From UHGV virus genome UHGV-0179428: 64,000 nucleotides of DNA; one strand, written 5' to 3'. The position numbers and the translations under genes were made by a program. Within the stretch, counting starts at the first letter, position 1; every line of letters begins with the position of its first letter. The DNA is from a virus. The notes under the pieces were generated by a model that worked only from the letters and a program-made list of their open reading frames with translations, had not been told where the DNA came from and ran no database searches. Of the stretch, positions 1-51,146 are shown piece by piece.

Positions 1-492
1 GCTCAGGATGAAGTAGACAACACCCCCATTTAATCCGATGTTACCCTGTCGAAGTTCGAGAGCAATTTCCAGGGGACGTGAAATCTCCCCCAAACCAAAG
101 AAAGATTCGTCGTGCGCCGCAACAACTTCGTACTTATTCACGCCTTGTTCTACAACAACGAACCAGTTATCCGACACTGGATACGGATTGCGCATGAAAG
201 AATGTTCGATCCCCACGCTTGGGTCAACAGTAACGGTTGTATGGCGCATTCCCATGGCGAAGTTGAACGTATCCCCATTTTGAACCGCAATTGCACAGTC
301 AATCGGAAGAATATCGGTGGTTCGATCGATAGAGAAAATCGTTTCCTGCGTAATTGAAGACTGATTGCTGCCTAGGAAATGGTTACGCAGAAAAGCAGCG
401 GTTGGACCTACGCTGGTTTGCAGCATATGGTAGCTATAACGACGACGTAGAGTGTTAGCCAGTTCGTAAATTACTTCAGATGGAAAAGTCAT
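1..492 (-). CDS. hypothetical protein, N-terminal part (gene runs off window start)
   Basis: Open frame on minus strand from ATG at 492 to position 1 with no stop; upstream CCTAAAAGAGGACTATTAAA-ATG RBS context; absent from the ORF track because it has no stop in the window. Confidence 0.6.
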   Translation of the reverse strand, partial: MTFPSEVIYELANTLRRRYSYHMLQTSVGPTAAFLRNHFLGSNQSSITQETIFSIDRTTDILPIDCAIAVQNGDTFNFAMGMRHTTVTVDPSVGIEHSFMRNPYPVSDNWFVVVEQGVNKYEVVAAHDESFFGLGEISRPLEIALELRQGNIGLNGGVVYFILS

Positions 493-545
493 TTTAATAG
501 TCCTCTTTTAGGTTTGTTCAAATCAACTAAGGGTTATGTAAAAAG

Positions 546-1025
546 TTAAAACAGTGGTAAGTTACGCCATTGACCTACCGAGTAAAAAGCTTTTGGATGT
601 TTACGGATATACGCTTTCGCTTCTTCTGGCAACCAACGATTGCCTACCAGTTTTTGTTGCGCAACAATTACCGCCAACAGCAAATACGGGTTTTTCGCGC
701 CGGGGAACTTTGCATTGGTTTCTAGCGCAATATCTAACATTGACGACCAGCCCAGTAATTTACGTTGCGCCGGTAAACGTTCTTCAATAAACATTAACCA
801 GTCCATGATTTGTCTAGGTTTATACGGACACGTATAATTCGCCCAACTTACCATCCCGAACTTAATAGCCTTCGCAATAACCCATACAGGAACTGCCACG
901 AAAAGACAGAAAATGGTCAACTGTGAGGCAGGTGCATCGATAAAAGTAACCGCTACAAGAACCATACACAGTTCAAGCACCACAAACCAAAAACGTGTTG
1001 GATAACGCCAAATGAATTTTATCAT
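546..1025 (-). CDS. small integral membrane protein (hypothetical)
   Basis: ORF track; strongly hydrophobic segments; CCCTAAAGGAACAGAGAT-ATG RBS context. Confidence 0.7.
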   Translation of the reverse strand: MIKFIWRYPTRFWFVVLELCMVLVAVTFIDAPASQLTIFCLFVAVPVWVIAKAIKFGMVSWANYTCPYKPRQIMDWLMFIEERLPAQRKLLGWSSMLDIALETNAKFPGAKNPYLLLAVIVAQQKLVGNRWLPEEAKAYIRKHPKAFYSVGQWRNLPLF

Positions 1026-1091
1026 ATCTCTGTTCCTTTAGGGAATGAAAATAAAAGTACCCCTTACTCCGTAAAGGGTAAGGGGTAGAGG

Positions 1092-1601
1092 TTAGAAGAA
1101 CGGCTGATTTGGAATGACAGCGTACTCTAAAATGAACATGTGCTCTGGGGCGTCTTCTTTACGCCAGACTTTGTGTGTTATCACAAGTTTTTCCAGAATC
1201 GTTAGAAAACTACGCTGGCAGTATGTGTTTTCGCCAAGTAGCAGTTTCTGAAGTTCTACAGTAGCGTCCATATACGCCTGTTTAAAGACTAAGCTACGGT
1301 TATACTGTCCAGTAAAATTCCAAAGCAAGACTTTCCCTTCTTCGGTTTCTTTTACCGTTGGTCGTAAACCACAAATCCACAGCAAGGCAAGGTTGACGTT
1401 CCAGTCAAACTCTAAACCTTCTTCTTCGTCATCACCGAATGCTGTAGGTAAAGCATCGTAAAATTCGTGCTTCTCTGCGAACTCTTCATCCGATTTAATC
1501 TCGTCTTCGATGCTGCTTCGGACGATACCGTAAATGTCTTTCGCGGTTAGCTGTGCGGCCTTTGTAATGCCTTTATACCAATCGGTTACAACGATGCTCA
1601 A
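1092..1601 (-). CDS. hypothetical protein
   Basis: ORF track; TTG start preceded by GAGGAG; start overlaps stop of upstream gene (translational coupling). Confidence 0.65.
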   Translation of the reverse strand: MSIVVTDWYKGITKAAQLTAKDIYGIVRSSIEDEIKSDEEFAEKHEFYDALPTAFGDDEEEGLEFDWNVNLALLWICGLRPTVKETEEGKVLLWNFTGQYNRSLVFKQAYMDATVELQKLLLGENTYCQRSFLTILEKLVITHKVWRKEDAPEHMFILEYAVIPNQPFF

Positions 1602-2296
1602 AGGGTAACTCCTCTATCGGTTGGAAAACTCATGTTTATTGTATCCCAAATTTTACTAACTTCCGCCAATTGAATCTGACGTGATGTTTTCTTCGCAAAC
1701 GCAAGCTGACGTGGGGCCGAGCCCACAACAACAGGCACATCGATTTTCGCGCTATAGAACGCGGCATCTTTCATAAAGCCTGCCATTTCTCGTTGTGCTG
1801 CTCGAGATTTGCTTTTGATTCGCGTGTGAGCGCCACTTTCACCCCAGTGGTAAGCTAACGCAACTTCAGCCATGGTGGGCTTGCGTTTGAGTCGTTTGGT
1901 TAACCCCTTCTCAAGATGTTTAACATACGCGGTAGCCAGCAAAACAGCGTTACGCGGATTATACAAATCGGTGTTCTGACTAAGACCTAATTCTTTTCCA
2001 TAAAGCTTTAGCAGATTGCGCTTGGTACTTGGAAGCATCTGTACCAGGCTGTGCGCTCGTGTGCTTTTGTTGTAAGCCTTGGGATCAAAACGTGATTCGC
2101 GATAAATCAGCGTAATCATCAGTTTAGGATCAACGCCTTGTTTTCGTGAGATTTCCACAATTAACGGACTGACTTTTTCGAACCGATGTTGGATTTGTGT
2201 AAACTCACGCTGATGCTTAGAATGTGGCGTTGACGTTGACGCCTGTGCGTTAAACGCGAAAAGTGTTACCAGTAAAAGAAAGAAGATACGAAACAT
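1598..2296 (-). CDS. putative lytic transglycosylase (SLT-domain) with N-terminal signal peptide
   Basis: ORF track 1598-2323; preferred ATG at 2296 preceded by GGAGAAAC; N-terminal hydrophobic signal-like segment; ESRFDP...LVQMLP motif resembling the SLT catalytic region. Confidence 0.55.
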   Translation of the reverse strand: MFRIFFLLLVTLFAFNAQASTSTPHSKHQREFTQIQHRFEKVSPLIVEISRKQGVDPKLMITLIYRESRFDPKAYNKSTRAHSLVQMLPSTKRNLLKLYGKELGLSQNTDLYNPRNAVLLATAYVKHLEKGLTKRLKRKPTMAEVALAYHWGESGAHTRIKSKSRAAQREMAGFMKDAAFYSAKIDVPVVVGSAPRQLAFAKKTSRQIQLAEVSKIWDTINMSFPTDRGVTL

Positions 2297-2396
2297 TTTG
2301 TTTCTCCAGTTGGATTTATACATTTCCGTATTCCGTAAGACGAAATGACGGCGCGGACAGCTAATACTCCTTTGTTGTGTGCCCTAATGATAATAT

Positions 2397-2957
2397 CTAT
2401 TTAAAAGAGTTTGGAATTAATGACTCTGCTTCTCGATACAACCTATCGGGTAAGTATAACGTGTAGTGTTGCCTCCTCGGTTCAAGTTTTTTGTAAAGCC
2501 ACAAGAAGATTTCTTGTCTTTCCCAGGAATCTAACCACCCATTTGCCATTCCCAGTGGAGGGATAGCAACGCTGGTATCCAGCTCCTCAACACAATCTGC
2601 TAATGCGGTAATGCCCGCAGTAACATAAGAAACCTGGGACTTTAAACGCCAATGTGTTTTCGTTGGGAGCAAGATGCACTTTTCATCAGGGTAAACGTAA
2701 ACGCTTCCAATCTTAATTTCGTCTTCACGACACCGCTTACGGTAATCTTGATATAGGTTGGGGTAGCGTTCACGGCACGCCAGCGCAATACCGCGGCCCA
2801 TTGCTCCTACACAGTTAATGGTAACGACTTTATAGTCTTCGGGCGCATTAAAAAGATCGCTACCAATTTCAGATTCTTTACGTACCGTTAACATAACGAA
2901 TCGGCCGCAGTTGATGTGTAGTATTAAAACGTGTACCGCCGATTGATAACTCGACAA
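2397..2957 (-). CDS. putative macro-domain-like (ADP-ribose binding/processing) protein
   Basis: ORF track; VVTINCVGAMGRG and later AIPPLGMANG segments resemble the two glycine-rich loops of macro domains; start uncertain (TTG 2957 or ATG 2894). Confidence 0.35.
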   Translation of the reverse strand: MSSYQSAVHVLILHINCGRFVMLTVRKESEIGSDLFNAPEDYKVVTINCVGAMGRGIALACRERYPNLYQDYRKRCREDEIKIGSVYVYPDEKCILLPTKTHWRLKSQVSYVTAGITALADCVEELDTSVAIPPLGMANGWLDSWERQEIFLWLYKKLEPRRQHYTLYLPDRLYREAESLIPNSFK

Positions 2958-2981
2958 GTATAGCGATATACGTTTTACCCA

Positions 2982-3350
2982 TTAGCGATTTTTTGTAATC
3001 CATTGTTTGACCGCCGTTTCTAAACCTTCGTGTTGTAAGCCCAGGCGTTGCATAGCCAGTGCCAAGTTGAGCGTGTGTACAACCTGTTCACGGAACTGAT
3101 GATCGTTCATGCGGTCCCAGACCTTCTCTACCGAAATATTGTGTTTCCAGAGCAAATAAGCTTCGCGACACGATGCGCGACGAACCAAGCTGGGTTTAAC
3201 AAAAGGCAGCTCGATTTCAGGTAAGTAACCTAAAAGCTTAACTAGCTGTGTTACCTGTGTCTTACCAAAGTCGTCACACTGATAACAAATTTGTAGAATG
3301 TCAAATTCATTCAACGGTATGCCGTAAATTGATGGGTTCTCTGTGAACAT
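2982..3350 (-). CDS. hypothetical protein
   Basis: ORF track; GAGGAG RBS 7 nt upstream of ATG. Confidence 0.65.
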   Translation of the reverse strand: MFTENPSIYGIPLNEFDILQICYQCDDFGKTQVTQLVKLLGYLPEIELPFVKPSLVRRASCREAYLLWKHNISVEKVWDRMNDHQFREQVVHTLNLALAMQRLGLQHEGLETAVKQWITKNR

Positions 3351-3552
3351 TCATATTCTCCTCAGGCTCGAAATGTGTTTCGGGTGGCAACGTTCCTAAA
3401 GCCCCTTGGATACAAGCCGTCAGTGAAGGTTTGCCGAAACATACCTTACCTATTGTCCCCATATTGGGATGCTGTAAGAACGCTTTCGCACGTTCGTATT
3501 CTTTCCAACAAATACTCGTATCCAAACCACCCACTCCGTACGATTTTAACAT
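3307..3552 (-). CDS. hypothetical protein
   Basis: ORF track; AGGAGAGCTAATT-ATG RBS; 44-nt overlap with downstream gene. Confidence 0.6.
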   Translation of the reverse strand: MLKSYGVGGLDTSICWKEYERAKAFLQHPNMGTIGKVCFGKPSLTACIQGALGTLPPETHFEPEENMNVHREPINLRHTVE

Positions 3553-3618
3553 AATTAGCTCTCCTGACGTAAATTTCTCACACTCATAGTGAAGTACGCC
3601 AAGAGAGCTTTATTGTTT

Positions 3619-4062
3619 TTAGAATGTTTTGCTAAAATCGACCCACTCACGATCGTGTGAGTAAACCGCCTGATAGCCGCGTCGGATGAAATACTCTTTT
3701 GCTTCTTTACATTTCGCATACATGCCAGTAACAATCTCGCCGAAAACTTCATCAGCTGCAATTGCTTTGAAAATCTCTTTCATTACACCCCGTTGACGAT
3801 AGTCTGGGAGCACGTATACCGAACGTATCTTAAGTGAACCGTTACGATTCCGATAACTACAGTATCCTACCGCGACATCATCCTGATACACCAGAACTAT
3901 GCAGTTACCTTCGATCAGCTGTCGCGCATTTAACTTCGGCACCGACGTTTTGATTTTCAGTAACGTGGCCTGGTGGTCTAAGTAACGGTAGTGTAGTTTG
4001 AGTAAATCGGCAGCTTGTCGCTCACCGACTTTAGAAGATGCGTTCAACAAATAAATTTCCAT
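3619..4062 (-). CDS. GNAT-family N-acetyltransferase
   Basis: ORF track 3619-4068; ATG at 4062 preceded by TAAGG; motif VYVLPDYRQRGVMKEIF matches the GNAT acetyl-CoA binding motif A. Confidence 0.6.
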   Translation of the reverse strand: MEIYLLNASSKVGERQAADLLKLHYRYLDHQATLLKIKTSVPKLNARQLIEGNCIVLVYQDDVAVGYCSYRNRNGSLKIRSVYVLPDYRQRGVMKEIFKAIAADEVFGEIVTGMYAKCKEAKEYFIRRGYQAVYSHDREWVDFSKTF

Positions 4063-4093
4063 TTGCAAACCTTAGAGACGCAAAAAAGTAAAA

Positions 4094-4222
4094 TTAAAAC
4101 CAACGCGCGATGACGAAAGCCGCAGCGGCTAATATGGCTGTGGTGATTATCAATCCACCCCATGAAAGTTCCGCGTCGTATAGTGCGGATATCGCTACAT
4201 TCGTAGCGTTTATCGTGGTCAT
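4094..4222 (-). CDS. small membrane protein (42 aa), hypothetical
   Basis: Manually translated: ATG at 4222 preceded by CAGGAGCAGAAA; peptide MTTINATNVAISALYDAELSWGGLIITTAILAAAAFVIARWF with C-terminal hydrophobic helix; below ORF-track size cutoff. Confidence 0.35.
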   Translation of the reverse strand: MTTINATNVAISALYDAELSWGGLIITTAILAAAAFVIARWF

Positions 4223-4279
4223 TTTCTGCTCCTGTCAATACCCTCACACCGGAGGGTATCTTCTGGACTATTTGGGTGG

Positions 4280-4378
4280 TTAATCTTCGAATGCCCAACG
4301 GTGACGTTTAATCAGCCAGTTTAAACCTTTACCAATTAACCACAACGAGCCAAGTGTTAACAGAACCCCTACAACCAT
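4280..4378 (-). CDS. small membrane peptide (32 aa), hypothetical
   Basis: Manually translated: ATG at 4378 preceded by AGGAGAGGGG; peptide MVVGVLLTLGSLWLIGKGLNWLIKRHRWAFED. Confidence 0.3.
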   Translation of the reverse strand: MVVGVLLTLGSLWLIGKGLNWLIKRHRWAFED

Positions 4379-4388
4379 ATCCCCTCTC

Positions 4389-4574
4389 CTAATTCCGCCA
4401 TTCGCATTCGCGTTGACGCCAAATTGAACCCCACGATAGTTTAATCAGATAAGATGAAACTACCCATAAAATCATCACCACACAAAACATGACATAAAGA
4501 ACCGCTAGAATGGACATGAAGCCAAACCCTGCCGCATCCACAATACGACGGAACCAATCAGTTTGCATAAACAA
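4389..4574 (-). CDS. small membrane protein, hypothetical
   Basis: ORF track; hydrophobic core; AGGAG RBS; overlaps the end of the upstream ATPase gene. Confidence 0.5.
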   Translation of the reverse strand: MFMQTDWFRRIVDAAGFGFMSILAVLYVMFCVVMILWVVSSYLIKLSWGSIWRQRECEWRN

Positions 4575-7062
4575 TTTTTACTCCTTCGTTATACACCGCA
4601 GGCAATGTCACCCCTTCCGGTTCGATGACACAGTACGATGCTTCATTAAGTTTAGAATGAACCTCGGCTTCGTGGGAGACTACCAACAGTTGAGAAAATT
4701 CTCCCGAGTTTGCTAACGTTTTAATAAAGCCGACCAGGTTGTTACGGTGCTCCTCATCCATACCTTCCGAAGGCTCATCCAAAAGCAATGGAAACTGATG
4801 CAACTTCAGCGCTTTGTACGCGGTCAGCCTGAACATCAGATTAAATATCGCACGCTGCGCCTTAGACCCTTTACGCACGTCAGGAACAGGCTCAGGATGC
4901 GTTTTTAGCTGGACAGGAAAAGTATAATCCAAATCACCGTCAGTGAGATCGCAAGGCATGACGCGCATGGGGTACGTCCAGACCTGTTCGATATAACGCG
5001 TCATTAACTCTGTGATTCTAACGATAGCGTTGTAAAAATACTTTCTAAGCACACCCTTTTCTGGCGAGAAGGCTTGAATCATCAGTTTGTTATTGAACTG
5101 CTGGGCTTGCAAGTCAGCAAGTTCGCGTTCCAAACTGTTGAGCTGATTCAATTCATTTTCCATCTGACGATAACGTTCGCGTGCGGTTGTAAAAGCATCC
5201 AGCTTCCCTTCTCGTGCACGTAAGAGTTCCTCGACGACTGTATTTGTCAACGTAACCTTAACATCACTCTCTAACCGTTCGAATAACGCACTGAAATCAT
5301 CTACAGCACGTTTAACATTCACCAGATAGGTAAGTGTCGTGTTAGCCAGTTCGTGCTCTCTACGACGCATTGAGAGCATCTCTGTGGCTTTACCTAATCG
5401 CGACTGTTGGAAAGCGATTTTCTGTTGTAAAGCACCATCGACGTTACCAACGGCCGCTACGGCATCCTGCCATTCTTTTTCCGCTTTCACTAACCGTTGT
5501 CGGGTTTCATGGTACTCAATAGCAGAGTACAACTCACTGTCAAACGCTGCGCATAGGCTCCCGAACTGCTCGCGTGATTCTGTGAAAACGTTACGTTCTT
5601 GCAAACGCTTAAAGAACATGCTCAATACCGGGTCCTTTGAATACGTCAGTACAATCTCACGAACCTGTCGCATATAAGTTACATCGGATTCTAACTCAAC
5701 ACGATCGCGTAATAGGGCCTCTAACTGCGTTTGTAGTTCCGTGCGCTGCTGTTGTTGTCCGCGAATCGAAGACTCAAGTTCAGGTAAAGAACGTGTAACA
5801 CCAGGCCGAAACTTAAACCGACACTGCGGACAATCCACTTCTGCTGTTTCTAAGTAGTGATTACGCTCATGATTTAAATTCTGTAAAACGTTCTCCACTC
5901 GCTGGAGTCTATCCCGCAACCCTGCGGTTTTTTGATCCATCACCAGAAGCCGTTCTTCCAAAACATTGAGTTTTTCGGTTGAATGAATTGCGTCCAGTGT
6001 TGTTCCTAACCGTTGCCCCCAGACACGCGCATCGGTAGCCGCACGAAGTTGGTCTAAATTGACGTTGTCGTTAAATAGACCCGGAAAGAGATGCTCGGTG
6101 TCCCATTTGGTAAGTAACTCACGTAAACGTGCCAGCGTATTCTTGAGACCTTCGTGATTCCGCATCAGGTAGTCTTGTCGTGTCGACTCATCCATTAATA
6201 ACGACAAGTCTTTATTCAACATCGATACCTCTGTTTCAGTAGAAACAACAGCTTCGCGGGCGGTCGCTTCGTTTTGTCGCGCGACCAGTATCTGTTCATC
6301 AGTAGGCAATCCACCACGATGTTGTAATATTGCGTCGATGGTTGGACCCAAGCTGTTTAATAACGCTTGGATTGTTTCGATGGTGACGGCACGATTTAAT
6401 CCTGGCAACTGTTCGATTTCTCGGTTCAGTTCACGTAAATCCGATTCCAAACCTTTTAATCTCGTCGCTAACTGCTGCCGTTCTTCCTCGTTCTCAATAA
6501 CGCGCGTCCGTAATTCGGCGATCTTACGGCTGGTGATTTCAATACCCCCATTTAAAGCAGTAAGGTTTTTACGCAAACGTTGATAAAACCCTAACGCGTA
6601 AGTGAGGTCAGAGGTACTTAAACGGTAAAACCACTTGCGGCGTAGTTCGGTTCCCGCGTCAGTTAACAACACCTCACCATTTAATAGTTCTTTAATCTCT
6701 TTCGTAATACCCGTGATTTCTTCAACACGGGAGTTGTAGACTTTCGCATTACCTTGCTCGACGATCTTTGTCCCCGTGGTCAAGTTCTCAATATCACAAA
6801 CCAGTGAGTTGCCTTTACGGGCAACTTTGAATCGATAGCGTTGATCGCCAACTAAACAGTAGTTTGTGTAAGAACCTCCGTCCCTGAATTCGGTTTTAGC
6901 CGGTGCTAAGGGTAAGAACACAGACAGTAGACTGGTTTTCCCGCAGCCGTTCCCACCCAGGATAATTGTTGTCGGTGACTGGATAGTGAAATCGAAGGTT
7001 TCAATTTCATGTAACCCCATCCCCGTAAAACCTTTGAGTATAATGCGTTCAACTTTTAGCAT
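4558..7062 (-). CDS. SMC/Rad50/SbcC-like ATPase with coiled coil
   Basis: ORF track 4558-7278; preferred ATG at 7062 after GGAGGTG; N-terminal Walker A GGNGCGKTS, long central coiled-coil region with CPQC, C-terminal Walker B LLLDEP and VVSHE. Confidence 0.7.
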   Translation of the reverse strand: MLKVERIILKGFTGMGLHEIETFDFTIQSPTTIILGGNGCGKTSLLSVFLPLAPAKTEFRDGGSYTNYCLVGDQRYRFKVARKGNSLVCDIENLTTGTKIVEQGNAKVYNSRVEEITGITKEIKELLNGEVLLTDAGTELRRKWFYRLSTSDLTYALGFYQRLRKNLTALNGGIEITSRKIAELRTRVIENEEERQQLATRLKGLESDLRELNREIEQLPGLNRAVTIETIQALLNSLGPTIDAILQHRGGLPTDEQILVARQNEATAREAVVSTETEVSMLNKDLSLLMDESTRQDYLMRNHEGLKNTLARLRELLTKWDTEHLFPGLFNDNVNLDQLRAATDARVWGQRLGTTLDAIHSTEKLNVLEERLLVMDQKTAGLRDRLQRVENVLQNLNHERNHYLETAEVDCPQCRFKFRPGVTRSLPELESSIRGQQQQRTELQTQLEALLRDRVELESDVTYMRQVREIVLTYSKDPVLSMFFKRLQERNVFTESREQFGSLCAAFDSELYSAIEYHETRQRLVKAEKEWQDAVAAVGNVDGALQQKIAFQQSRLGKATEMLSMRRREHELANTTLTYLVNVKRAVDDFSALFERLESDVKVTLTNTVVEELLRAREGKLDAFTTARERYRQMENELNQLNSLERELADLQAQQFNNKLMIQAFSPEKGVLRKYFYNAIVRITELMTRYIEQVWTYPMRVMPCDLTDGDLDYTFPVQLKTHPEPVPDVRKGSKAQRAIFNLMFRLTAYKALKLHQFPLLLDEPSEGMDEEHRNNLVGFIKTLANSGEFSQLLVVSHEAEVHSKLNEASYCVIEPEGVTLPAVYNEGVKIVYAN

Positions 7063-7093
7063 ACCCACCTCCATAAAGACGGAGTGTGGTGTA

Positions 7094-7137
7094 AAAAGAA
7101 AAAAAAATAAAGAAAGGGAGAACCCGAAGGTTCTCCC
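7094..7137 (-). terminator. rho-independent terminator
   Basis: GGGAGAACC-cgaa-GGTTCTCCC hairpin followed on minus strand by a long T tract. Confidence 0.7.
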
Positions 7138-7142
7138 AAACG

Positions 7143-7751
7143 TTATTTGGTGTAGAGGTGATAACCCATTGAAGTCCAATAATCGACGTTCTTCGTGTTT
7201 TCTACCCAAACCTGTCCCGCCTTTGTGGCTAAGACTTCCATTGTCAATGTACAGATCAGATTTGTTACCGGGATACAATTTCCAGGTGTAACATCATCCA
7301 GATAAACCGGGTATAAAAACGGCGATTTAATGGATTGGTACGGGTAAGAATAGTGGCTACCGACCTTCCACCCTTCTTCTACAGGACAGAGATTAAAAGT
7401 GCGTGTTTCAGGAACTGCGTTTTCAGAGATCCAGTTAACAACATCGGCTTTAATTCGATCGTGGTCGATATAGTAGAACACAACACGTTGTGGGATACTT
7501 GTGGTACCAGCCGGGTCTAAAGCCTCCAACGCCTTAAAAGGCGACGTTAACAATGTTGTACTGTTCTCAAGCGCGTAAACCAACTTTTCGTAAGCAGTCG
7601 GTGTTTTACGTTTAAAATATTCCCGTAAGCGAGGGTATGCCAGGAATCCCTCTACTTCTTCTTCCATTAAGTCAATGAATAAAGGCGTATGCGAAAAACG
7701 CTCTGCATTTTGCATCGCTTCAAGAAAACGAACTAATGTAATTTCGTTCAT
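7143..7751 (-). CDS. hypothetical protein
   Basis: ORF track; AAGGAAAG RBS; flanked by terminator hairpins. Confidence 0.7.
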   Translation of the reverse strand: MNEITLVRFLEAMQNAERFSHTPLFIDLMEEEVEGFLAYPRLREYFKRKTPTAYEKLVYALENSTTLLTSPFKALEALDPAGTTSIPQRVVFYYIDHDRIKADVVNWISENAVPETRTFNLCPVEEGWKVGSHYSYPYQSIKSPFLYPVYLDDVTPGNCIPVTNLICTLTMEVLATKAGQVWVENTKNVDYWTSMGYHLYTK

Positions 7752-7771
7752 CTGGTCTTTCCTTTTAGATC

Positions 7772-7801
7772 AAAAAAAGAAGCCCCGAGTAAACGGGGCC
7801 G
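7772..7801 (-). terminator. rho-independent terminator
   Basis: GCCCCG-agtaaa-CGGGGC hairpin with T tract on minus strand. Confidence 0.55.
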
Positions 7802-7807
7802 GGCTAA

Positions 7808-8284
7808 TTACAGCCCTAAGTGCGTGAGTGATAAAATAGGTTGTGTTTCACCTTTAATCGTCGCGAAGGAACGATACATTTCTGCGTTACTTGAAAAAAC
7901 TTCGTTAGCAACGATACATTCACCCGTCTCTAAAGAAAGGAGATAAATGTAGTCGCTCCATACGCTTTGTACCAACACCCACTCAAGTGCGGTATCATTT
8001 TCGCGTGTTGTTCGCAGGTGGTGAAAGTAAGGACGGATTGCATCAACTGCCGCATTAAAACGACGGTGATAAATTCGGGTTAAATCAAAGGTCCAGATTG
8101 TTTCCAGGTCGACTGGATGTAGTGTGCGCACCGTTTCGATAATCGTCGACTGATCGTTAAGGCGCGAGGCTTCGGCGATACGTAGCAGTTTCCAGGCCAC
8201 CGTTAAGTTGTGGCGAATTTGTTCAGGTTTAGCCGACAGGTCATGATGAAATTGCGCAGCTTGGTAAACGTTAGATAATTGCAT
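7808..8284 (-). CDS. hypothetical protein
   Basis: ORF track; ACCTAAAGGAGTATTAAA-ATG context. Confidence 0.75.
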   Translation of the reverse strand: MQLSNVYQAAQFHHDLSAKPEQIRHNLTVAWKLLRIAEASRLNDQSTIIETVRTLHPVDLETIWTFDLTRIYHRRFNAAVDAIRPYFHHLRTTRENDTALEWVLVQSVWSDYIYLLSLETGECIVANEVFSSNAEMYRSFATIKGETQPILSLTHLGL

Positions 8285-12533: not shown

Positions 12534-13685
12534 TTAGAGGTCAGCAACAAACAACAGCTGACTGCCGTATTTTTGCACGTCAGCCCAACCGTAGTCTTTC
12601 CCGATTATAGGTAGATGTAAAGCATCCAGCTTCTCGTCTTTCGCCTTCAGTTTCGCCATTAACGCATTGGACTCCTCAGCACTGAGCAGTAATGCGGGTT
12701 CTTTTTCAGTACGTCCTTCTGCGGTCGGGAAGAAATCGTAATAGCTGCGAGTAGGTAAATCGACAGAAAAACTACGATTGCCTATTGTGATGAAGAACGC
12801 AACTCCTTCACAGTTAGCGTCTACACTACACGACCACCCCGCCTCTGTTAAAAGGTCTTTTAACAGACACCACACTTTAAGTTGGTTCTTAGAAAGTGTA
12901 CGGTAAATAGCAAGATGGTCAGGAAGTAAATGCACACCCATAACCACGTTTTCAGATTTCTCGTCAAGCAACTCTGGATGTTGAATCGGGAATAATAATT
13001 CACTGATACCCACGCTATCAATTTTGTTAACAAAATCAGTTAATTCATCTTTTAAGGTACGCACGGATTTTTCTCCTTCGACTTCAATAATCTGGTGGGG
13101 TTCGCCGCTAATTAAAATGTGGTAAACGATATCGTCGGTAGAACGGTAAGTGAGTTTGATAGCTTTATCACTTAACATTTCGTAGCGGAAGAAACTTTCG
13201 TACCAAGTTGACCCGAAATCGTTTCGTGTAAGTTCCTGCTCAACTTTGATGGTTTTTGCTTCAAAGCCGATTAACCCGCTTAATAACGCGAGTTCTGGTT
13301 TAGTTAAAATGTCCGCGCCGTGAAAGGGCACTTTCTCAAGCTGAAGACATAAATTACTGACTTTACCACTTGGGAAGACCTTAAACATAATCTTCCGGCT
13401 GCTACTCTTTTCCCTAACAACGAGTTTACGGTAATTTAGTCCACAATTTGTGTAAACCGCGAACTTGTAACCTTCAATTTCTTCATCGTAAGTACAGACA
13501 TCGACAGGCGCGATAATCTCATTGTATTCAGTAAGTACACAGCAGCCCAAGTTATAACCAAACAACTCACGTTGTAATGAAGACTCGATGGTTAAGCTTG
13601 GTAGCGACCAAGTCCGATTATAGCATCTGTCCATCAGTTCTTTTAGGATTTTGACATGTCCCGGTTTAGAAATAATATTTCGCAT
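12534..13685 (-). CDS. hypothetical protein, member of C-terminal GW..QLLF module family
   Basis: ORF track; CCTAAAGGAGAGTAAAA-ATG; C-terminus DYGWADVQKYGSQLLFVADL. Confidence 0.75.
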   Translation of the reverse strand: MRNIISKPGHVKILKELMDRCYNRTWSLPSLTIESSLQRELFGYNLGCCVLTEYNEIIAPVDVCTYDEEIEGYKFAVYTNCGLNYRKLVVREKSSSRKIMFKVFPSGKVSNLCLQLEKVPFHGADILTKPELALLSGLIGFEAKTIKVEQELTRNDFGSTWYESFFRYEMLSDKAIKLTYRSTDDIVYHILISGEPHQIIEVEGEKSVRTLKDELTDFVNKIDSVGISELLFPIQHPELLDEKSENVVMGVHLLPDHLAIYRTLSKNQLKVWCLLKDLLTEAGWSCSVDANCEGVAFFITIGNRSFSVDLPTRSYYDFFPTAEGRTEKEPALLLSAEESNALMAKLKAKDEKLDALHLPIIGKDYGWADVQKYGSQLLFVADL

Positions 13686-13714
13686 TTTTACTCTCCTTTA
13701 GGTTTTTTCGTTAC

Positions 13715-14269
13715 TTAAGCAGGGTAAGCTAAGAACAACAGCTGCTGGCCGATTTTACGTACGGTATACCAACCGTGGGCTTTAGCGACCGCGATCAACG
13801 TTTCCCAGTCGTCAACATCGCACTGTTCATTCCGAAGTCTCGTAAAGAGTGCTTCGGCTTCGCTTTGGTTTAATAACTTACCTGGGTTGTCTGGGGTACA
13901 GTCAGTAGGGGTTGGAAAGAAAGCATACTGACGCGCTAAGAGAAAATCGACCAGATACTTGGTGTTCTCTTTATAAACCAGCGTGGAAGTCTTCCCTTCG
14001 TGGAAGAAGCTGCCTGTTTTCCAAACGCTATCTTTCAGTAGGCTTTGAAAGTAATCTGTAAAACCCGTTCTAAACGGGATATGGGCTTTACGTGTGATGT
14101 TGCGACGCAGTGGGGTTTCCTCCACAGCTTGTACACTTACCCCTACTATCATCGCACCTGGCTGAATAATGGTATTGGTCAGTACGGTATAAGGACGGAC
14201 AAAGAAATGTTCGCCTACGCCCTTTTCAAGGGTTTGGATAATTTCATTTTTCAGTTCAGTTTGAAACAT
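13715..14269 (-). CDS. hypothetical protein, member of C-terminal GW..QLLF module family
   Basis: ORF track; AAAAGGAGAATATACC-ATG; C-terminus AHGWYTVRKIGQQLLFLA. Confidence 0.75.
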   Translation of the reverse strand: MFQTELKNEIIQTLEKGVGEHFFVRPYTVLTNTIIQPGAMIVGVSVQAVEETPLRRNITRKAHIPFRTGFTDYFQSLLKDSVWKTGSFFHEGKTSTLVYKENTKYLVDFLLARQYAFFPTPTDCTPDNPGKLLNQSEAEALFTRLRNEQCDVDDWETLIAVAKAHGWYTVRKIGQQLLFLAYPA

Positions 14270-14298
14270 GGTATATTCTCCTTTTTCGGTTTTCTTAA

Positions 14299-15036
14299 TT
14301 ACGCGGTTTTAATTAACAGCAGATAGTCCTTCGTAATCTCAGCACAACCCCACCCTCTCATCGCGGCGATTTTACGAAGATCAATTTTCTCGTGATATTT
14401 CAATAAGGGATCATCTGAGTTAATCTCAACCAGGTGGGTGGCTTTAGAAATCGTTTCTACATCAGGGATCTGTTTTGCTAAGTCTGATGCAATTAACTCG
14501 ATGATACGGTATCCCTCTAACACAGAAACATAAATGCGTAAACCATATAGCGTGCCCTCGTCTTCTAATGGACAAAGATCGATGCCGGGTCCAAGCAGTG
14601 ATAACTCGACGTTATCGGGAAGGTTTTCCGCATTTCGGAGTAACCCTATCCCATTTCTAAACAGAGGGAAGTAAGAGAATAGTGGTGGTAAAGCCCAACC
14701 GTTCCCAATAAGCACATCGGCGATACTAGTAGGTGTGTTCGCAAGGAGACGAATGTGGTCAGCCACAACTTCAAGTTCGGCGTCACTGATCAACTTATAG
14801 ATTAACATGACACTGGTTTCGGTATTAATAACAAAGAAGACGCGGTTGGCGTAACTGCCTATCACGTATTCGTCAATCATACAGTCGATAACGTCACTGT
14901 CTGGATAATCTTCAGGTTTAATTGTTCCAGCATCGATTAACTTAGCAGGTTGCGATTGTTTTATTAGTTCGTTAACCACCGTAGAAGAAAGTTCTAAACT
15001 GGTGTTGGTAAAGATATCGTCTAGTAATTCTCTCAT
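14299..15036 (-). CDS. hypothetical protein (degenerate C-terminal GW module)
   Basis: ORF track; weak RBS; C-terminus MRGWGCAEITKDYLLLIKTA. Confidence 0.6.
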   Translation of the reverse strand: MRELLDDIFTNTSLELSSTVVNELIKQSQPAKLIDAGTIKPEDYPDSDVIDCMIDEYVIGSYANRVFFVINTETSVMLIYKLISDAELEVVADHIRLLANTPTSIADVLIGNGWALPPLFSYFPLFRNGIGLLRNAENLPDNVELSLLGPGIDLCPLEDEGTLYGLRIYVSVLEGYRIIELIASDLAKQIPDVETISKATHLVEINSDDPLLKYHEKIDLRKIAAMRGWGCAEITKDYLLLIKTA

Positions 15037-18121: not shown

Positions 18122-21100
18122 ATGGCTGTCGTCCTAGACCCACACTTCAAAAAACCGGGGAATAAAATAACCGGTGAAGCGGTCGCCGTCATTGGTACGA
18201 AATACCGAATGTTGGTACCTGCCCACGCCCCTTTTTTCACCACATCCCTGGTGGTCAAGAGCGGCGGCAAAACACTGACCTTAGGCGACGATTACATTAT
18301 TACACACCCGTACGAGACCGGTATGTTGCGCACAGCCTATCTCATTCACGGGATGATTTGGATTGTTAATGACAAATACAAATCGAATTTTACGGTAGAT
18401 TACCACGCCGTTGGTTGTGGTCAGGCTACCCAACAACAGATTACCGCAGAACGCGAACTCAATAAAGATAAATACCCGACTACGTGTCAGTGGGACACCG
18501 TCATCGGGGACGTTTACTTTCCGCCGGTCGATATCCAGTTCGATTGGGAGAATTGGAAAGGCGAACTGGAGTTAATGCAGGCTATTGCTGGATTAGGCGA
18601 TTCGTTAGGGGAAGTCGTGAGTCGACTTAACCCCATCGCACGCAATACCCTGGATTTAGAATACCGTGCTAACAGCAAGGTTATCACTTCCGAGCAGTAT
18701 GCCGTATACGACAATAAAGGTGGTTTCACCTACAACACTACCCGTCATCGTTATAGCTTGAGTTATAAAACTGCAACCTTTAACGACTACGTCCTGTCCG
18801 TGAAACACAGAATTCCTGCTATTCTGCCAGACATGACGAAATTGAATCCAAACGAACAGATCGATTGGATGCTCTGTTATGCTAACGGCGGTGCAAGCAT
18901 TCTACGGTTGCAGCTAAAACAGCGCAAAATCTCACTGGTCTTAACGGTCGCTATTGGCAGCGGTTCAACAAACTACGATTATACGTTAATCAACGGTTTA
19001 ACTGACGATGAGTTAAAAAACGATATCGATTTTAGTGTAACCCGTCAACCCGGAAACGGTGTTTACGTCATCGTAGTAAAAACAAATAAACAGACCATGG
19101 ATTACACATTCAACGTCGATACGCCGCCTGATGAGTTCTCGGCAGGGTATTCGAAAACGGATGTTGCTAAATGGTTGAAGTTTAAAACGAACATTAATCT
19201 AAACTGGTATGCGGCCGAAAACGATTATATTCAAATTCGTTCTTTACCCGGCGCACCAGAACCTGACGTCGATAATGATGTTTACCAGTTAATAGTCAAA
19301 TACCATCAGTTAGTTGAGCAGCTGTATCGTAACGCGCCTGCACACGAACACGTTACACGTAAGGACAACCCGCACACCGATACGTGGGGACCGATCCGTG
19401 CGTTAGAGCTGAATGGTATTGCGTCGGATGCCGCGTTAGCTTACGGGAAAACGAAACAGCAGTTAACGGATTACGTTAATGCTAAGTACCCAACACAAGC
19501 AACGTTAACCGCACAGAAAAAACTGCTTCGTGAATCGGCGAGCAAGAACGTTAACGGCACGATTACCACACTTCCGGGTTTTACTTCGTTCACGACGGAA
19601 GTTGATCCGGTTTCGATGTCGAAATACGTGAGTCCTTATTTTAGCGAAAGCTATGTTAGTAGTGGTCACAGATATCACGGCGCGCTTCGTTACACAGGAA
19701 CGAAAAGCGGTTTCAGTGCTAACTTTAATGCGGTGCCTGCCAACCTGCAAGATATTGACTTTATTGTTACTGGACGTAAAACAGCGTCTGGTAATGAAGC
19801 GGTCGGTAGGGTTGGTTTACGTTTCTACCAAAATCCTGGTAGTAACTCCGGTAAGTACGTAGAGATTACCGGTGAAATCTGGTCCGGTACTCTTACTATC
19901 GAACTGGCGTTGCACGGTTACGGTAGTCCGGTACCGGCAGTTCGGTATATTTCACAAGCTCCTAACCCGGCAATACCGGATGGGGATTTTACGCTACGTT
20001 TTCAACTGAAGCGTACAGGGAATGTGTTTGACGTCGTTATTACCGTAAACAGTAAAACGTATAGCGGTCGGATTAACTTCAATAACATGGACGCTGCGTT
20101 AGAAGCATTAGAGAATCAGCACCACTTTAAATCGCTGATTAATAATGTTGCCGACGCCGTTACCATTAGTTCGCAAAACAAAGGTAACACAGTTACCATT
20201 AAGAAAGCACCGGATGTTGTTGACGAGACACGTTTAGGCGCTCAGTTTGTCGTTGATCCGAAATCCATTAAGTTCATCGGTCAAGGTTCTACTGATGTTA
20301 ACGTGGGTAACAACCCCGTAACGTTCCAAGCAGGTACTAACCAGCTTGTGCTATACCCCGATGACCGAGGATTGTTGTGGCGTGGTAAAAAACTCTTAGA
20401 CCCCACCACCGTAGCCCCGTATCTGCCAGGCAATACCGCAGGTGGTACAGGTTTATTCTACGCAAACTCGACAACAACGGTTACGATCACCGGTAGCGGG
20501 ATAAAAGCCTCGCCGTTCGTAGCGACCTTTATTCTTCCTACCGCGACCGATACAACAGCTCTGGCGGCTTGGCAGTTGACCGATGAGTTTGGTACCGCTG
20601 AAAACCTTGCAGCAACGCCAGCACTGATTGAAAAACTCGATGCGGAGTTCACCGGTAAGTTAGTTGCAGTTAAATCGTACATTAACGACATGCAACTTAC
20701 CAGCTCGGTTACTATCGATAAGATTACCTTTGGTTTAGGTAATGTTGCGAATACGCCTGATGTTGATTTACCGATTTCTACAGCACAACGTGCGGAGTTA
20801 GATAAATACTCGCCTAAAGTTCACCAACACCCGTTTACCGCTTTTGGTACAGGGAACGCAACCACAGCGAAACGTGGTCTGATTAAATTTGGTCTGGATG
20901 TGGATGATGCGACTTTAGCACTCGATGGGAGTGTGGTAATGGCGCAGACTTCCCAGATTGAAAAATTGGAGCGCGCTGTCAGCGGTGTTGACTCGGAGGC
21001 ACGTCTTGACATTATACGTTTTGGTGAGTCTGGTAACGACTTAATAGACCTTACGGTCAAAGACAAAATTCTGGTCACGCTTCCAGCTTCAACGTATTTT

Positions 21101-22444
21101 ATCGGTGGTGAAACATACGACGTTCCGTTGATGACGATTAACGTCAGTGAACGTTTTCCGAAATTGAATACAGAAATCTACGCAGGGATTTTTGTTGATA
21201 TTGTTGACAACAAAGCGAAGTATATTGTCCATGACAGCTACAGTCAGGCTGAAACGGATACCATGACGCGTGTAGGGTTGATTGGTGTTAACGACATTTC
21301 TGAGGTGTTCGTTACGGAGATGCGTAATGTCACACGGTTGGGTGATTTCCGTGAACTGAAAGATCATAAAGCCGATGACAACGCACACATTCAGCGCTCC
21401 GCGTCACGTGCAGCGCTTGGGTTAGCTAACTTAACCGTAGGCGCGCCTTGCTGGGCTTCTGGACTCCAGGCAGTAGTACGCGGTGAAGCAGATTGGCGTT
21501 ATGTTGCCGGTGGGCAGTATAAAGCTTTAGACGGGGTGAAATACGACCAACTCGCATCAAAGTGGATTTTTGACGCGAAAGGGGTAAGCGATAACCTACA
21601 CGGGTTTATCCACAACATGTTCCCAGCTTTTAAGAACGCAGGAATGCGGGTAAGTTGGGAAACAGAAAGCAACGCAAAAACCGGCACGGTGTTAGAAACT
21701 GTTTTAGGTTGTTGGAAAAACACCGACGGCGAGTTTATGCGGTTGTCGTTACTTATCACTCGTGGTTATCGTTTAACTGACAGCAATGGTGAATATTGTT
21801 ACGCAGGGTTCGGTTTGAACTTCGGTAGCGGGAAATCGGTAGTGGTAGGTTTCACACCAACGAAGCGTGTTACGCCTGCACCGTGGAATACGTTACAACC
21901 TGACGTAACGTTTACCCACACCCGTGCTGCAAACAACGCAATAACGTTTAACGCAACACTGACCTTAGCGGGCACTACGTATACCATCGTGGTGTTTTTA
22001 TCTGCGACAGATAAATACGTAAGCTGCACGGCAGCAGGGGGAGCTACGCAGAAAATCCCTCTAACTGACCGTTTAACAGGGTTCAATATCGCACCTATCG
22101 TTAACGATCCGTATACCCCTATTTACTACGGTTTAGGGGGACTTTATGAGGATGAGGTTCGTGCCAACATCCGTTCTACGGCAGACAGCGCAACCTCGAA
22201 TAAAGTCTATGGTACGTTGTTAGACTATATTAGCAACTATTCCTCATTAAATCGTGTGCGCGTTATGGAATTGACCGGTGTCAGTTCAGACCCCGAAACG
22301 CTTAATGCGTTAGTGGCAACTGAATTTAATAACAACCTGGCGGATTACGCTGCGTTACCGATACCTCCTTATCTTAACAAGGAGCGCGTAATGTCGTTTA
22401 TCGACACCAACAATAAAGTGCAGGCGGTAATCATTCGCGATTAA
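18122..22444 (+). CDS. giant tail fibre / receptor-binding-like protein 1 (1440 aa)
   Basis: ORF track; AGGAGTAGAGA-ATG; N-terminal region shares the PFF...GDDY module with the next three genes. Confidence 0.7.
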   Translation: MAVVLDPHFKKPGNKITGEAVAVIGTKYRMLVPAHAPFFTTSLVVKSGGKTLTLGDDYIITHPYETGMLRTAYLIHGMIWIVNDKYKSNFTVDYHAVGCGQATQQQITAERELNKDKYPTTCQWDTVIGDVYFPPVDIQFDWENWKGELELMQAIAGLGDSLGEVVSRLNPIARNTLDLEYRANSKVITSEQYAVYDNKGGFTYNTTRHRYSLSYKTATFNDYVLSVKHRIPAILPDMTKLNPNEQIDWMLCYANGGASILRLQLKQRKISLVLTVAIGSGSTNYDYTLINGLTDDELKNDIDFSVTRQPGNGVYVIVVKTNKQTMDYTFNVDTPPDEFSAGYSKTDVAKWLKFKTNINLNWYAAENDYIQIRSLPGAPEPDVDNDVYQLIVKYHQLVEQLYRNAPAHEHVTRKDNPHTDTWGPIRALELNGIASDAALAYGKTKQQLTDYVNAKYPTQATLTAQKKLLRESASKNVNGTITTLPGFTSFTTEVDPVSMSKYVSPYFSESYVSSGHRYHGALRYTGTKSGFSANFNAVPANLQDIDFIVTGRKTASGNEAVGRVGLRFYQNPGSNSGKYVEITGEIWSGTLTIELALHGYGSPVPAVRYISQAPNPAIPDGDFTLRFQLKRTGNVFDVVITVNSKTYSGRINFNNMDAALEALENQHHFKSLINNVADAVTISSQNKGNTVTIKKAPDVVDETRLGAQFVVDPKSIKFIGQGSTDVNVGNNPVTFQAGTNQLVLYPDDRGLLWRGKKLLDPTTVAPYLPGNTAGGTGLFYANSTTTVTITGSGIKASPFVATFILPTATDTTALAAWQLTDEFGTAENLAATPALIEKLDAEFTGKLVAVKSYINDMQLTSSVTIDKITFGLGNVANTPDVDLPISTAQRAELDKYSPKVHQHPFTAFGTGNATTAKRGLIKFGLDVDDATLALDGSVVMAQTSQIEKLERAVSGVDSEARLDIIRFGESGNDLIDLTVKDKILVTLPASTYFIGGETYDVPLMTINVSERFPKLNTEIYAGIFVDIVDNKAKYIVHDSYSQAETDTMTRVGLIGVNDISEVFVTEMRNVTRLGDFRELKDHKADDNAHIQRSASRAALGLANLTVGAPCWASGLQAVVRGEADWRYVAGGQYKALDGVKYDQLASKWIFDAKGVSDNLHGFIHNMFPAFKNAGMRVSWETESNAKTGTVLETVLGCWKNTDGEFMRLSLLITRGYRLTDSNGEYCYAGFGLNFGSGKSVVVGFTPTKRVTPAPWNTLQPDVTFTHTRAANNAITFNATLTLAGTTYTIVVFLSATDKYVSCTAAGGATQKIPLTDRLTGFNIAPIVNDPYTPIYYGLGGLYEDEVRANIRSTADSATSNKVYGTLLDYISNYSSLNRVRVMELTGVSSDPETLNALVATEFNNNLADYAALPIPPYLNKERVMSFIDTNNKVQAVIIRD

Positions 22445-22457
22445 GGAGAATTTTTTG

Positions 22458-25400
22458 ATGAAAGCGTATCCTTACGATCCTCGGGGGACGAAAGCCGAGA
22501 ATCACTTCTTAGAGGAGCGTATCATCGGGTCAGAGAACAACAACGATCGGGTGGTGATTTTAGACCACCGCCCGTTCTTTGAAGATTTGGTCGTCAGACA
22601 ACCAGGTTCAACCACCCCACTGAGTCGTGGGGTGGACTACGAACTGCAATATCAGCTGACGGAACTGGATGACTCGGTAGCAGCCAACGTGTATTGTGGG
22701 GTACACCTTATCAACCCATCCATCAAGGGTATCGTAACCTTTGAAGGACAAATGCTCGGCGGTACGTTCTACGACCCGTTTGTTGATATTCTCGATGAAC
22801 TGGTGAAATATTTGAATAACCCAGTCAGTGCTGACTGGTTGTTATTAGACGGTAGACCATCGTTATATCCAGCGACGCCAGCAGCAACGTCCTGGGCGGA
22901 TTTGCTGAACAAAAAATATTTAGCGTCGGCAGTTCACGACATTGAATTGAAAACCGACGACGCTAACCAATTAATTAAAGACAAATTAGCTGAAGTTAAA
23001 GCGTTAGTGACTGCGTTGGGTAAAGAAATCGAAGCATTTAACTACCCAGCACATATCGCAGCGAAGAACCCGCACGAAACCACATCCGCGCAGATTAACG
23101 CGCATCCTGTTAACTTGAAAACCCCCGACACCTTTATGGCGTACGGGTTAAAGTTGAAAGCACTGACGGATGAGCTGAAAGCGTTTCGTTTACCCCAGTC
23201 AGTTATCGACACGTATATCTCTCACTGGATTTCTTCGGAAGTACGGGGCGTGTTTAACTGTACGGTGTCAGGAAACCGCGCACAGTTCCGTTCGAAAAAC
23301 GGTGAGTCAGAAATCATTTTTGCCAACGATGGCTTTACGTTAAAATCCAACGGTTCTGTGGTATTAGCGGTAGGACATCTGGAAGGCACAGGTGCAGGAC
23401 GTTACATTAATTGGCGTGCTGGTAAAAACACCTTACGTATCGAGTCAACCGGCGATGCTTTAGGGATGAACAAACTCACCCTGAATGGTAACCCGTTACT
23501 GACTACCACAGCTTTGATGGAATACCAACAAGATCCTGATGCTGGCGGGAGCGGCGGCGGTGATCCTGATGACTCGAAGGTGTACATCGAAGGCCGTAAT
23601 GGGATTAGCTTCACCGGTAAAGGCTCTCGGACCGATCCTATCGTGGGTACTATCGACCCGACGAAAGCGACAACCGCTGAAAAAGGTGTTGTTAAGCTTA
23701 AAACTGGTAAAGGTACAGAAACGGTTGGGGTTGCAGCAACGCCAGCGTCATTAACACCTTATTCGACCGACCTATCAGGGTATGTGGCTAAAACGACCAT
23801 GATTAACGGTAAGCCAATGAATGACGGCTCCAGGACAATCACGAAAGCTGACCTGGGGTTAGGGCAAGCGGATAACACCGCAGACCTTGACAAACCGTTG
23901 TCAACCGAGTTAACTAAGGCGGTTAGCGGTCTAGCAGATGTAGGCCATCATCACGATTGGTCGGAGTTAGGCATTTATAAAGCTTCTCAATCTGTTTACG
24001 GTATTGGTCGTTATGCAACTAACCAGAACGGTTTGGTTGAAAACCGTGCAGTGGTACCGAACATCTTAAAAGAGCTTTCGGCACGTTTAAGTGTGGTCGC
24101 TGCGGCAATTGCAAATGCGAAAGAAGGAACAGTCACGGATTTCGCTGCTGTAAAAGGCGCAGACTGGCGATTTAATAGCCAGGGTACGGCAATCTCCGTT
24201 CAGGATTTGAAATATTTCTATTTGCTGGACGGCACGAAAGGTGACAGTACCGTTACCGGTGCGATTGACCTGCAAACCACCCCGATGTTTAACTGGTTCT
24301 CACCGAACAACCAACTTGAGCTGACTTGGGCTACGGGTAAGGTGAGTAACGGTACGGGAATCAACTGGACGGGTATTGAAGAACCGCCATTGATGGGGTT
24401 CCAGTCTGTCCCGGTAGGTAAGACTGCTACACAGATGGGTGACCAGTCAGTTGTTACTGTATTGGCAAAAACGCGTGTAAAAGCATACCAACCGAAGCTC
24501 TGGGTTTATGCTGCTGGGGGTGGTCCGGTTACGGTTTACATTAACGGTATCCAGGCAGCCACAGGCCAGTCTCCACTCGTCGCGGTGTATGAAACGTCGT
24601 CAGACGTTGAAAATTACACAGTGGCGGTTAAAGCCGAGTGTAGCGACACGACTAAATCCGCAGCGGTACAGTTCGAAGTTTACGATGGTGACTACCCCGT
24701 TTATTTCAGTGGCCCTGAAACGCGCGTAGAGCTTCTCCAGGAGTTTGTTACAACGCACGTAGGGGTTCGTCACTATTTGTACGTTAACATGCTCACAGGC
24801 TCTCTGTATTCGCGTGCTGAACCGATTCAGAGTATTGCCGTCGACCCAGAACGCGGTTATATCGGTTATGTTGATATCGTTCCTGGTCAGTCTTACGCGA
24901 ATAAAACTGTGGGATTTGAAACCACGTTTGATTTCGGGAAAAGTGCGGAAGTTAGCGAGCACATCAGCACTCGTAAGGCACACGGTCTCAGCGCTGTTGA
25001 CTGGGCGTTAACGGATAACCCACGGTTGCCGTTATTAAACCGTGCTATTGCTGAACCAAGAGCGTGTATCTTTAGGAAACCGTTAGCAACCGCTACAGGG
25101 GATGTTTTCCATCTTGTCAGTCGTGGCCTTTATACCTACGCACACAACCAAAACGTGAAGTCGAGTCTTCAATACGTTGTGATACCTGAAGGTGCTACGC
25201 CGTATTGTTGGTTTACACCATTTAACCCGAAAGAAAACAACGCACCGACATTCGAAGGCTCGTTTGCGTTCGATGTTGACGATGTTGGTGGAACGCAAGC
25301 CCTTGCTGCTGCGCCGGATTTGGTTCTATGCACGTCAACGCAAGGTAGCAGCGTTAAACGTCGCTATCTGCGCATTGACCTAACTACCAAAACCTGTAAG

Positions 25401-26639: not shown

Positions 26640-26675
26640 GACAGACTGCCTGCGGGCAGTTGTGTGTCCGTAGGT

Positions 26676-26714
26676 AACCCCTCCCTGTAATGGGGAGGGG
26701 TATCCATTTTATTT
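26676..26714 (+). terminator. rho-independent terminator
   Basis: ACCCCTCCC-tgtaat-GGGGAGGGGT hairpin followed by T-rich tract. Confidence 0.6.
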
Positions 26715-26733
26715 AAAAGTAGGAGTCTTTACG

Positions 26734-47519: not shown

Positions 47520-47574
47520 TTTTATCTTCCTTTTTAGTTTTTACATGTCGAAGTGATAATGAGTTGATTTATGC

Positions 47575-51135: not shown

Positions 51136-51146
51136 GTTATAGTTCC

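Follow-up and report, generated by a model that had tools for sequence, protein, structure and literature searches.

The minus-strand gene at positions 2397–2894 of the window, i.e., the whole stretch of 64,000 nucleotides of viral DNA analysed here, encodes a single-domain DarG-type macrodomain. By analogy with its phiKZ ortholog AdfM, this protein probably (at roughly 0.8) counters the DarTG2 defence system of the host by removing ADP-ribose from DNA. A sequence-only reading of the window had proposed a phage anti-defence role through the reversal of DarT-type DNA ADP-ribosylation, and that proposal is supported by analogy, as this activity was shown experimentally for the ortholog phiKZ gp104/AdfM. 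No new principle is involved: the family, the mechanism and a 62%-identical ortholog were already published in 2026. The assignment would nevertheless give a function to a protein whose copies in Salmonella and metagenome assemblies are always labelled ‘hypothetical protein’, and it would add one more SPN3US-like jumbo phage to the range of the AdfM family, which has been defined by experiment. A further consequence is the prediction that this phage, a possible candidate for Salmonella therapy or biocontrol, resists hosts carrying DarTG2.

Sequence and Fold of the Macrodomain

The tentative description of the product as a macrodomain protein is borne out both by sequence comparison (Pfam, PDB, PADLOC and NCBIfam) and by the predicted fold. 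The Pfam Macro family (PF01661) matches residues 25–116, scoring 27.2 bits where the gathering cut-off is 22 (E = 4e-6). The AlphaFold2 model, built from an alignment of 29 sequences, has a pLDDT of 94.1 and a pTM of 0.90, and the three-layer alpha/beta/alpha macro fold is present in it. Comparison of the model with the PDB using Foldseek gave 168 matches at E ≤ 1e-3; each of the 50 listed is either a macrodomain or a designed protein with this fold. The first four ranks are occupied by DarG and DarTG structures (5M3E, 5M3I, 5M31 and 7OMU), above the TARG1 and viral nsP3 macrodomains, and the top three show TM-scores of 0.78–0.86, rmsd values of 1.8–2.2 Å and 33–34% identity.

Sequence searches, with E-values that lie well outside the range of chance, point to the same subtype. 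With phmmer against the PDB, the M. tuberculosis DarG macrodomain (5M3I) is found at 3e-26 and that of T. aquaticus (5M31/5M3E) at 5e-21, with the Thermosipho DarTG fusion (7OMU) next; all other matches have E-values of 0.02 or worse. A profile made from 29 homologs reaches 7.6e-46 and 2.6e-41 for DarG, 2.9e-28 for the DarTG fusion and 1.5e-7 for TARG1. The PADLOC DarG model matches at 5e-37, over its macro half only. The sole NCBIfam match, antitoxin_DarG (NF048014), scores 124.9 bits over model positions 7–154 of 338, which is under the cut-off of 250 because the protein has nothing that corresponds to the C-terminal half of DarG. The same model is the best NCBIfam description of all ten cellular relatives sampled (296–386 aa; 198–236 bits), and the nearest non-phage relatives in an exhaustive HMMER scan are mostly 300–390 aa long. 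Judged from sequence and from the structural model, the protein is of the DarG subtype, nearer to DarG than to the MacroD, TARG1 or viral nsP3 types.

The C-terminal DarT-binding domain of DarG is absent from the 165-aa protein, the antitoxin_DarG match being confined to the model positions given above, and neither DarT/DUF4433 nor an ADP-ribosyltransferase was found among the tested flanking ORFs. Since both the DarT-binding domain and an adjacent toxin gene are absent on testing, the protein does not qualify as a DarG antitoxin in the narrow sense. It is a predicted orphan antitoxin-like enzyme and, by analogy, most likely works like the DarG macrodomain.

Database annotations suggest another activity. 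Homologs carry the names ‘Appr-1-p processing protein’, ‘phosphatase’ and ‘ADP-ribose 1-phosphate phosphatase’, and PHROG 335, labelled ‘phosphatase’, is matched at 2e-35. Structures of ADP-ribose 1''-phosphate phosphatases do match, although weakly (6LFT at E = 0.02; 1.8e-6 by profile, over the N-terminal third only). A generic hydrolase of ADP-ribose metabolites or ADP-ribosylated proteins (a MacroD-type O-acetyl-ADP-ribose deacetylase or an Appr-1''-p phosphatase) with no role against DarT is nonetheless quite unlikely. The ‘phosphatase’-type annotations are automatic name transfers, and no NCBIfam model of the MacroD/YmdB/Poa1 type matches at E ≤ 1, the PDB giving only weak partial matches at E = 0.02–0.05. 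The first loop has the motif N-x-V-G-x-M-G-x-G, which is of DarG rather than MacroD type. DarG macrodomains score some 20–40 orders of magnitude better than the phosphatase structures, and the MacroD or phosphatase reading of the annotations was rejected on these relative scores. In addition, the phiKZ ortholog acts on DarT2-modified DNA (PMC13309987).

Gene Coordinates and Translation Start

The sequence-only reading had placed the protein at 2397–2957. An open reading frame of exactly this extent is real, but it lies on the minus strand, where it is the longest in the ORF listing (186 aa from TTG), and its likely start is the ATG at 2894 rather than the TTG at 2957. A plus-strand reading of the interval was ruled out, as its translation contains stops throughout.

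The choice between the two starts is based on several lines of evidence. In alignments, the SPN3US, Asesino and phiKZ orthologs start within a few residues of the Met at 2894, and in SPN3US the aligned ATG comes directly after a stop codon. An apparent upstream extension of the tblastn alignment in SPN3US crosses a stop codon and was discarded. The DNA upstream of the ATG is unconserved, the exact 165-aa product has been called independently by gene callers on public assemblies, and residues 2–6 form the first beta-strand, which AlphaFold2 models confidently. For these reasons, the TTG start was dropped in favour of the ATG, and the coding sequence most likely encodes 165 aa (Table 1). Residue numbering counts from this ATG.

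No obvious Shine–Dalgarno sequence precedes the ATG at 2894, whereas other genes of the window carry AAAGGAG. A strong Shine–Dalgarno sequence, CCTAAAGGAG, is located directly upstream of five minus-strand genes (8292, 13693, 45139, 50271 and 52445). The lack of a comparable site means that the macrodomain gene may be weakly translated or translationally coupled. The lack of a clear ribosome-binding site would also suit a frame that is open by chance or a pseudogene in decay, an explanation whose probability is negligible in view of the conservation of the protein. There are 48 homologs at 33–98% identity, the exhaustive HMMER scan returned 5,116 relatives at E ≤ 1e-3, and the catalytic and loop residues are invariant; the fold is intact and confidently predicted, and the frame is full length, matching its orthologs from end to end.

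Table 1. Features of the macrodomain gene and of its predicted active site; positions are those of the window.
Feature	Position	Strand	Basis
Coding sequence (most likely extent, stop codon included) of the 165-aa orphan DarG-type macrodomain, AdfM ortholog by sequence	2397..2894	-	ORF; ortholog alignment; Pfam Macro; PADLOC DarG; AlphaFold2; Foldseek
Upstream part of the longest TTG ORF (5' extension), probably untranslated	2895..2957	-	No ortholog counterpart; DNA upstream of the ATG unconserved
Beta-strand and glycine-rich loop 1 of the predicted ADP-ribose pocket, residues 23-45, VVTINCVGAMGRGIALACRERYP	2760..2828	-	Conservation in 29 homologs; aligns with the T. aquaticus and M. tuberculosis DarG loop
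Loop 2, predicted diphosphate-binding, residues 110-121, AIPPLGMANGWL	2532..2567	-	Conservation; aligns with DarG (A/V)(L/V)PPLG(A/V)GNGGL
Asn27 codon, equivalent to phiKZ AdfM N23 and T. aquaticus DarG N22	2814..2816	-	Pairwise alignments
Lys79 codon in PTKTHWR, equivalent to phiKZ AdfM K78 and T. aquaticus DarG K80	2658..2660	-	Conservation and alignment

ADP-Ribose Loops and Active Site

Both peptides that had been likened to the diphosphate-binding loops of macrodomains are present in the minus-strand product, and the likeness is upheld by their invariant glycines and by their alignment to the loops of DarG. Within the set of 29 homologs, residues G30, M32, G33, G35 and A37 of loop 1 are invariant and T25, N27, V29 and A31 nearly so, while A110, P112, P113, L114, G115 and G119 of loop 2 are invariant. 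The stretches NCVGAMGRG (27–35) and PPLGMANG (112–119), which align with the DarG loops, are invariant or nearly so.

The putative catalytic residues are conserved as well. T78 and K79 are invariant in the 29 homologs, and the segment PTKTHWR, which contains Lys79, is aligned with PTKKHWR of DarG and PTKDNWR of phiKZ gp104. In pairwise alignments, Asn27 lies in TINCVG, opposite N22 of T. aquaticus DarG and N23 of phiKZ gp104. The lysines K80 of T. aquaticus DarG and K78 of phiKZ AdfM, together with N22/N23, have been named as active-site residues, and the N23A mutation lowers the activity of phiKZ AdfM (PMC13309987). The alignment of N27 and K79, combined with the conservation of the loops, consequently identifies the two segments as the two ADP-ribose-binding loops.

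Orthologs and Source Phage

The protein is 62% identical to Asesino gp217 (2e-73) and 37% identical to phiKZ gp104 (1e-29). Using tblastn, it was found in 265 phage records, mostly of jumbo phages; the best matches are in SPN3US-like Salmonella phages (64–66%) and in Erwinia phages, Asesino among them (62%); phiKZ-like phages reach about 37%. The positional orthologs of the gene are SPN3US gp196 and Asesino gp217, the order SMC/SbcC-like gene, GNAT acetyltransferase, small ORFs, macrodomain gene and SLT transglycosylase being common to the window, SPN3US and Asesino. As far as sequence can tell, the gene is an ortholog of AdfM (phiKZ gp104, Asesino gp217, SPN3US gp196).

The 64-kb window as a whole is colinear, in reverse orientation, with positions 105–176 kb of SPN3US, and the ORFs that align by ORF-by-ORF tblastn are 25–82% identical at the amino acid level. 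Both Seoulvirus, the genus of SPN3US, and Erskinevirus, that of Asesino, belong to Chimalliviridae, the jumbo phages that form a nucleus. A megablast search of window positions 1–8000 against the phage collection gave no match, and the phage therefore has no close sequenced relative in that collection. Contigs of up to 223 kb carry the exact protein, and near-identical copies occur in Salmonella enterica assemblies. The source is an SPN3US-like jumbo phage, about 225 kb in size and so far undescribed, that is seen in Salmonella assemblies.

Proposed Function

The functional assignment draws on work on the phiKZ ortholog. Phage phiKZ gp104 was named AdfM, ‘anti-DarT factor macro’, by Morgan et al. 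(Cell Rep 2026; PMC13309987), with phiPA3 gp108, Goslar gp83 and Asesino gp217 as further members. According to the same study, macrodomain homologs are present in about half of chimalliviruses, and the alignment with DarG includes Asesino gp217 (PMC13309987). In vitro, phiKZ AdfM removes the ADP-ribose attached by DarT2 to a TNTC oligonucleotide, and it fully rescues DarT2 toxicity (PMC13309987). Deletion of AdfM lowers the titre by 3–6 logs on DarTG2 hosts, and the phage DNA is more ADP-ribosylated without it (PMC13309987). Protection against DarTG2 was shown for phiKZ AdfM and, by phenotype, phiPA3 AdfM only, and Asesino gp217 was examined for localisation only; the phage nucleus is where the proteins of Asesino, phiKZ and phiPA3 are all located (PMC13309987). 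The import of phiKZ gp104 depends on PicA, and nuclear import is signalled by surface patches that are specific to the phage and unreadable from sequence (PMC11087766).

The mechanism that can be proposed for the present protein follows these results. In the literature, host DarT2 of the DarTG2 system is described as ADP-ribosylating thymidine in TNTC motifs of single-stranded phage DNA. As shown for the phiKZ ortholog, the protein would bind this ADP-ribose in its two glycine-rich loops and hydrolyse the thymidine–ADP-ribose bond at the Asn27/Lys79 site. Unmodified DNA would thereby be restored, allowing replication and packaging to proceed. It would be the product of the toxin that is neutralised and not the toxin itself: with no DarT-binding C-terminal domain and no toxin partner, the protein could undo what DarT has made and presumably could not sequester DarT. 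Import into the phage nucleus, where the DNA is located, is probable, as in Asesino, phiKZ and phiPA3.

Against an AdfM-like function stands the identity of only 37% to the biochemically tested phiKZ enzyme. Combined with a different C-terminal third, this identity leaves room for a wider substrate range or a late role. The protein of the SPN3US/Asesino clade might act on substrates beyond DarT2 adducts, for instance on other ADP-ribose marks of nucleic acids, or be dedicated to clearing ADP-ribose from DNA late, shortly before packaging; this is unlikely, and if true it would represent a new activity within the AdfM family. The same 37% identity, together with the versatility of macrodomains, could also favour action against another NAD+- or ADP-ribose-based defence, with RNA ADP-ribose (CmdTAC-type toxins) or ADP-ribose-derived signals (Thoeris-type) as substrates, and substrate specificity is not read directly by the sequence and structure comparisons used. 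Such a role is improbable, however, as the nearest relatives by structure and by profile are without exception DNA-specific DarG enzymes, and the catalytic Asn and Lys are kept.

A housekeeping role, in which the protein reverses or tunes ADP-ribosylation by the phage's own ADP-ribosyltransferases instead of opposing a host defence, is very improbable. It is suggested by some distant homologs that fall under features annotated ‘ADP-ribosyltransferase’ in actinophages, yet the neighbours of the gene include no ADP-ribosyltransferase that could be found, and on hosts that lack DarTG2 the growth of phiKZ AdfM deletion mutants is normal (PMC13309987). The gaps in score, the conserved active site and the results on the orthologs weigh against all these alternatives, and the removal of ADP-ribose from DNA modified by DarT2 is the preferred reading.

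The timing of expression is a separate matter. The sequence-only reading had assigned the gene to an early-gene block, a claim that found no support. The neighbouring SbcC/SMC-like ATPase, GNAT and SLT transglycosylase genes give no temporal signal, and phiKZ AdfM is reported to be a late protein (PMC13309987). A k-mer search of the window for a shared early or late promoter motif returned only the RBS-like CCTAAAGGAG.

Other Features of the Window

Directly downstream of the macrodomain gene, the gene at 1598–2323 (minus strand) codes for a lytic transglycosylase with an SLT domain, the N-terminus of which is hydrophobic and signal-like; it is orthologous to SPN3US gp198 (‘putative endolysin’) and to Asesino gp218. 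The SbcC/SMC-like ATPase is encoded at 4558–7278 (minus strand). Its listed TTG ORF of 906 aa overlaps the upstream gene at 7143–7751, and because of this overlap and of a family match that begins at residue 70, the true start is probably an internal Met near MEVGMLKVERI. A tRNA scan of the window found none.

Several regions differ from SPN3US. At 54302–59586 (minus strand), the gene of a 1500-aa tail fibre, whose C-terminal tip matches the distal subunits of T-even long tail fibres, precedes that of a 260-aa T2-type Gp38 tail-fibre adhesin (PF05268 at 5e-70, with Gp38_N in addition). As the SPN3US counterpart is limited to a 46-residue stretch, the pair resembles a T-even receptor-binding module that a chimallivirus has taken up. 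The Gp38 adhesin was the only match in a Pfam scan of ten window-specific ORFs. Minus-strand blocks of ORFs of 147–383 aa at 12534–15036, 45201–48069, 50308–52438 and 61145–63880 are without a tblastn match in the SPN3US region that corresponds to them, and eight of their ORFs gave no match when scanned against Pfam; these blocks may be accessory or anti-defence cargo. At about 43132–43194, the colinearity skips SPN3US 118.4–135.4 kb, and the array of paralogous virion structural genes of SPN3US (roughly gp141–gp155, about 17 kb) has no counterpart in the window.

Paralogous genes are found at two further sites. Three tandem paralogs of 176–180 aa (38791–39321, 39390–39920 and 39986–40528, minus strand) all match the single SPN3US gp160 at 35–45% identity, which indicates a local triplication. 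On the plus strand, three consecutive giant paralogs of 1440, 1394 and 1728 aa (18122–31920) have common N-terminal PHROG 2163/7449/7557/8078 modules and are the counterparts of SPN3US gp170, gp169 and gp168 (40–68% identity). The gene pair at 35300–37529 (plus strand) corresponds to the SPN3US ‘radical SAM superfamily’ proteins 2 and 1 (gp164/gp163), with 69% and 82% identity, and its second gene matches the radical SAM PHROG 1802.

Comparison with Known Systems

Human TARG1 (C6orf130; 4J5Q, 4J5S), which is mainly a protein (Glu/Asp) ADP-ribose hydrolase, belongs to the same macrodomain subclass. It has its catalytic lysine in the equivalent strand and gives Foldseek TM-scores of 0.71–0.84. 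It differs in having only 19% identity to the window protein and a profile E-value of 1.5e-7, compared with 1e-46 for DarG.

Other phage factors against DarT are known. AdfN, the orphan NADAR protein of T4-like phages directed against DarTG1, follows the same strategy, being an orphan enzyme of antitoxin type, carried by a phage, that frees phage DNA of ADP-ribose, but it has the unrelated NADAR fold and acts on the guanine adducts of DarT1 (PMC11825919). AdfB of ICP1 is a probable direct DarT binder. AdfA is not known to be a macrodomain.

DarG of the DarTG2 systems of T. aquaticus and M. tuberculosis (5M31, 5M3E, 5M3I) has the same glycine loops, lysine (K80) and asparagine (N22). However, it is a chromosomal protein of about 340 aa with a C-terminal DarT-binding domain, whereas the window protein is viral, comprises 165 aa without this domain and has no adjacent darT gene that could be found.

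The closest known system is AdfM. Compared with the window protein, phiKZ gp104 carries a 10-residue insertion before loop 2, and its C-terminal 40 residues are unlike those of the window protein. Like AdfM, the window protein is a single-domain DarG-type macrodomain of about 160–166 aa that comes from a probable chimallivirus and keeps the active-site Asn and Lys, and its gene lies where gp217 is found in Asesino and gp196 in SPN3US.
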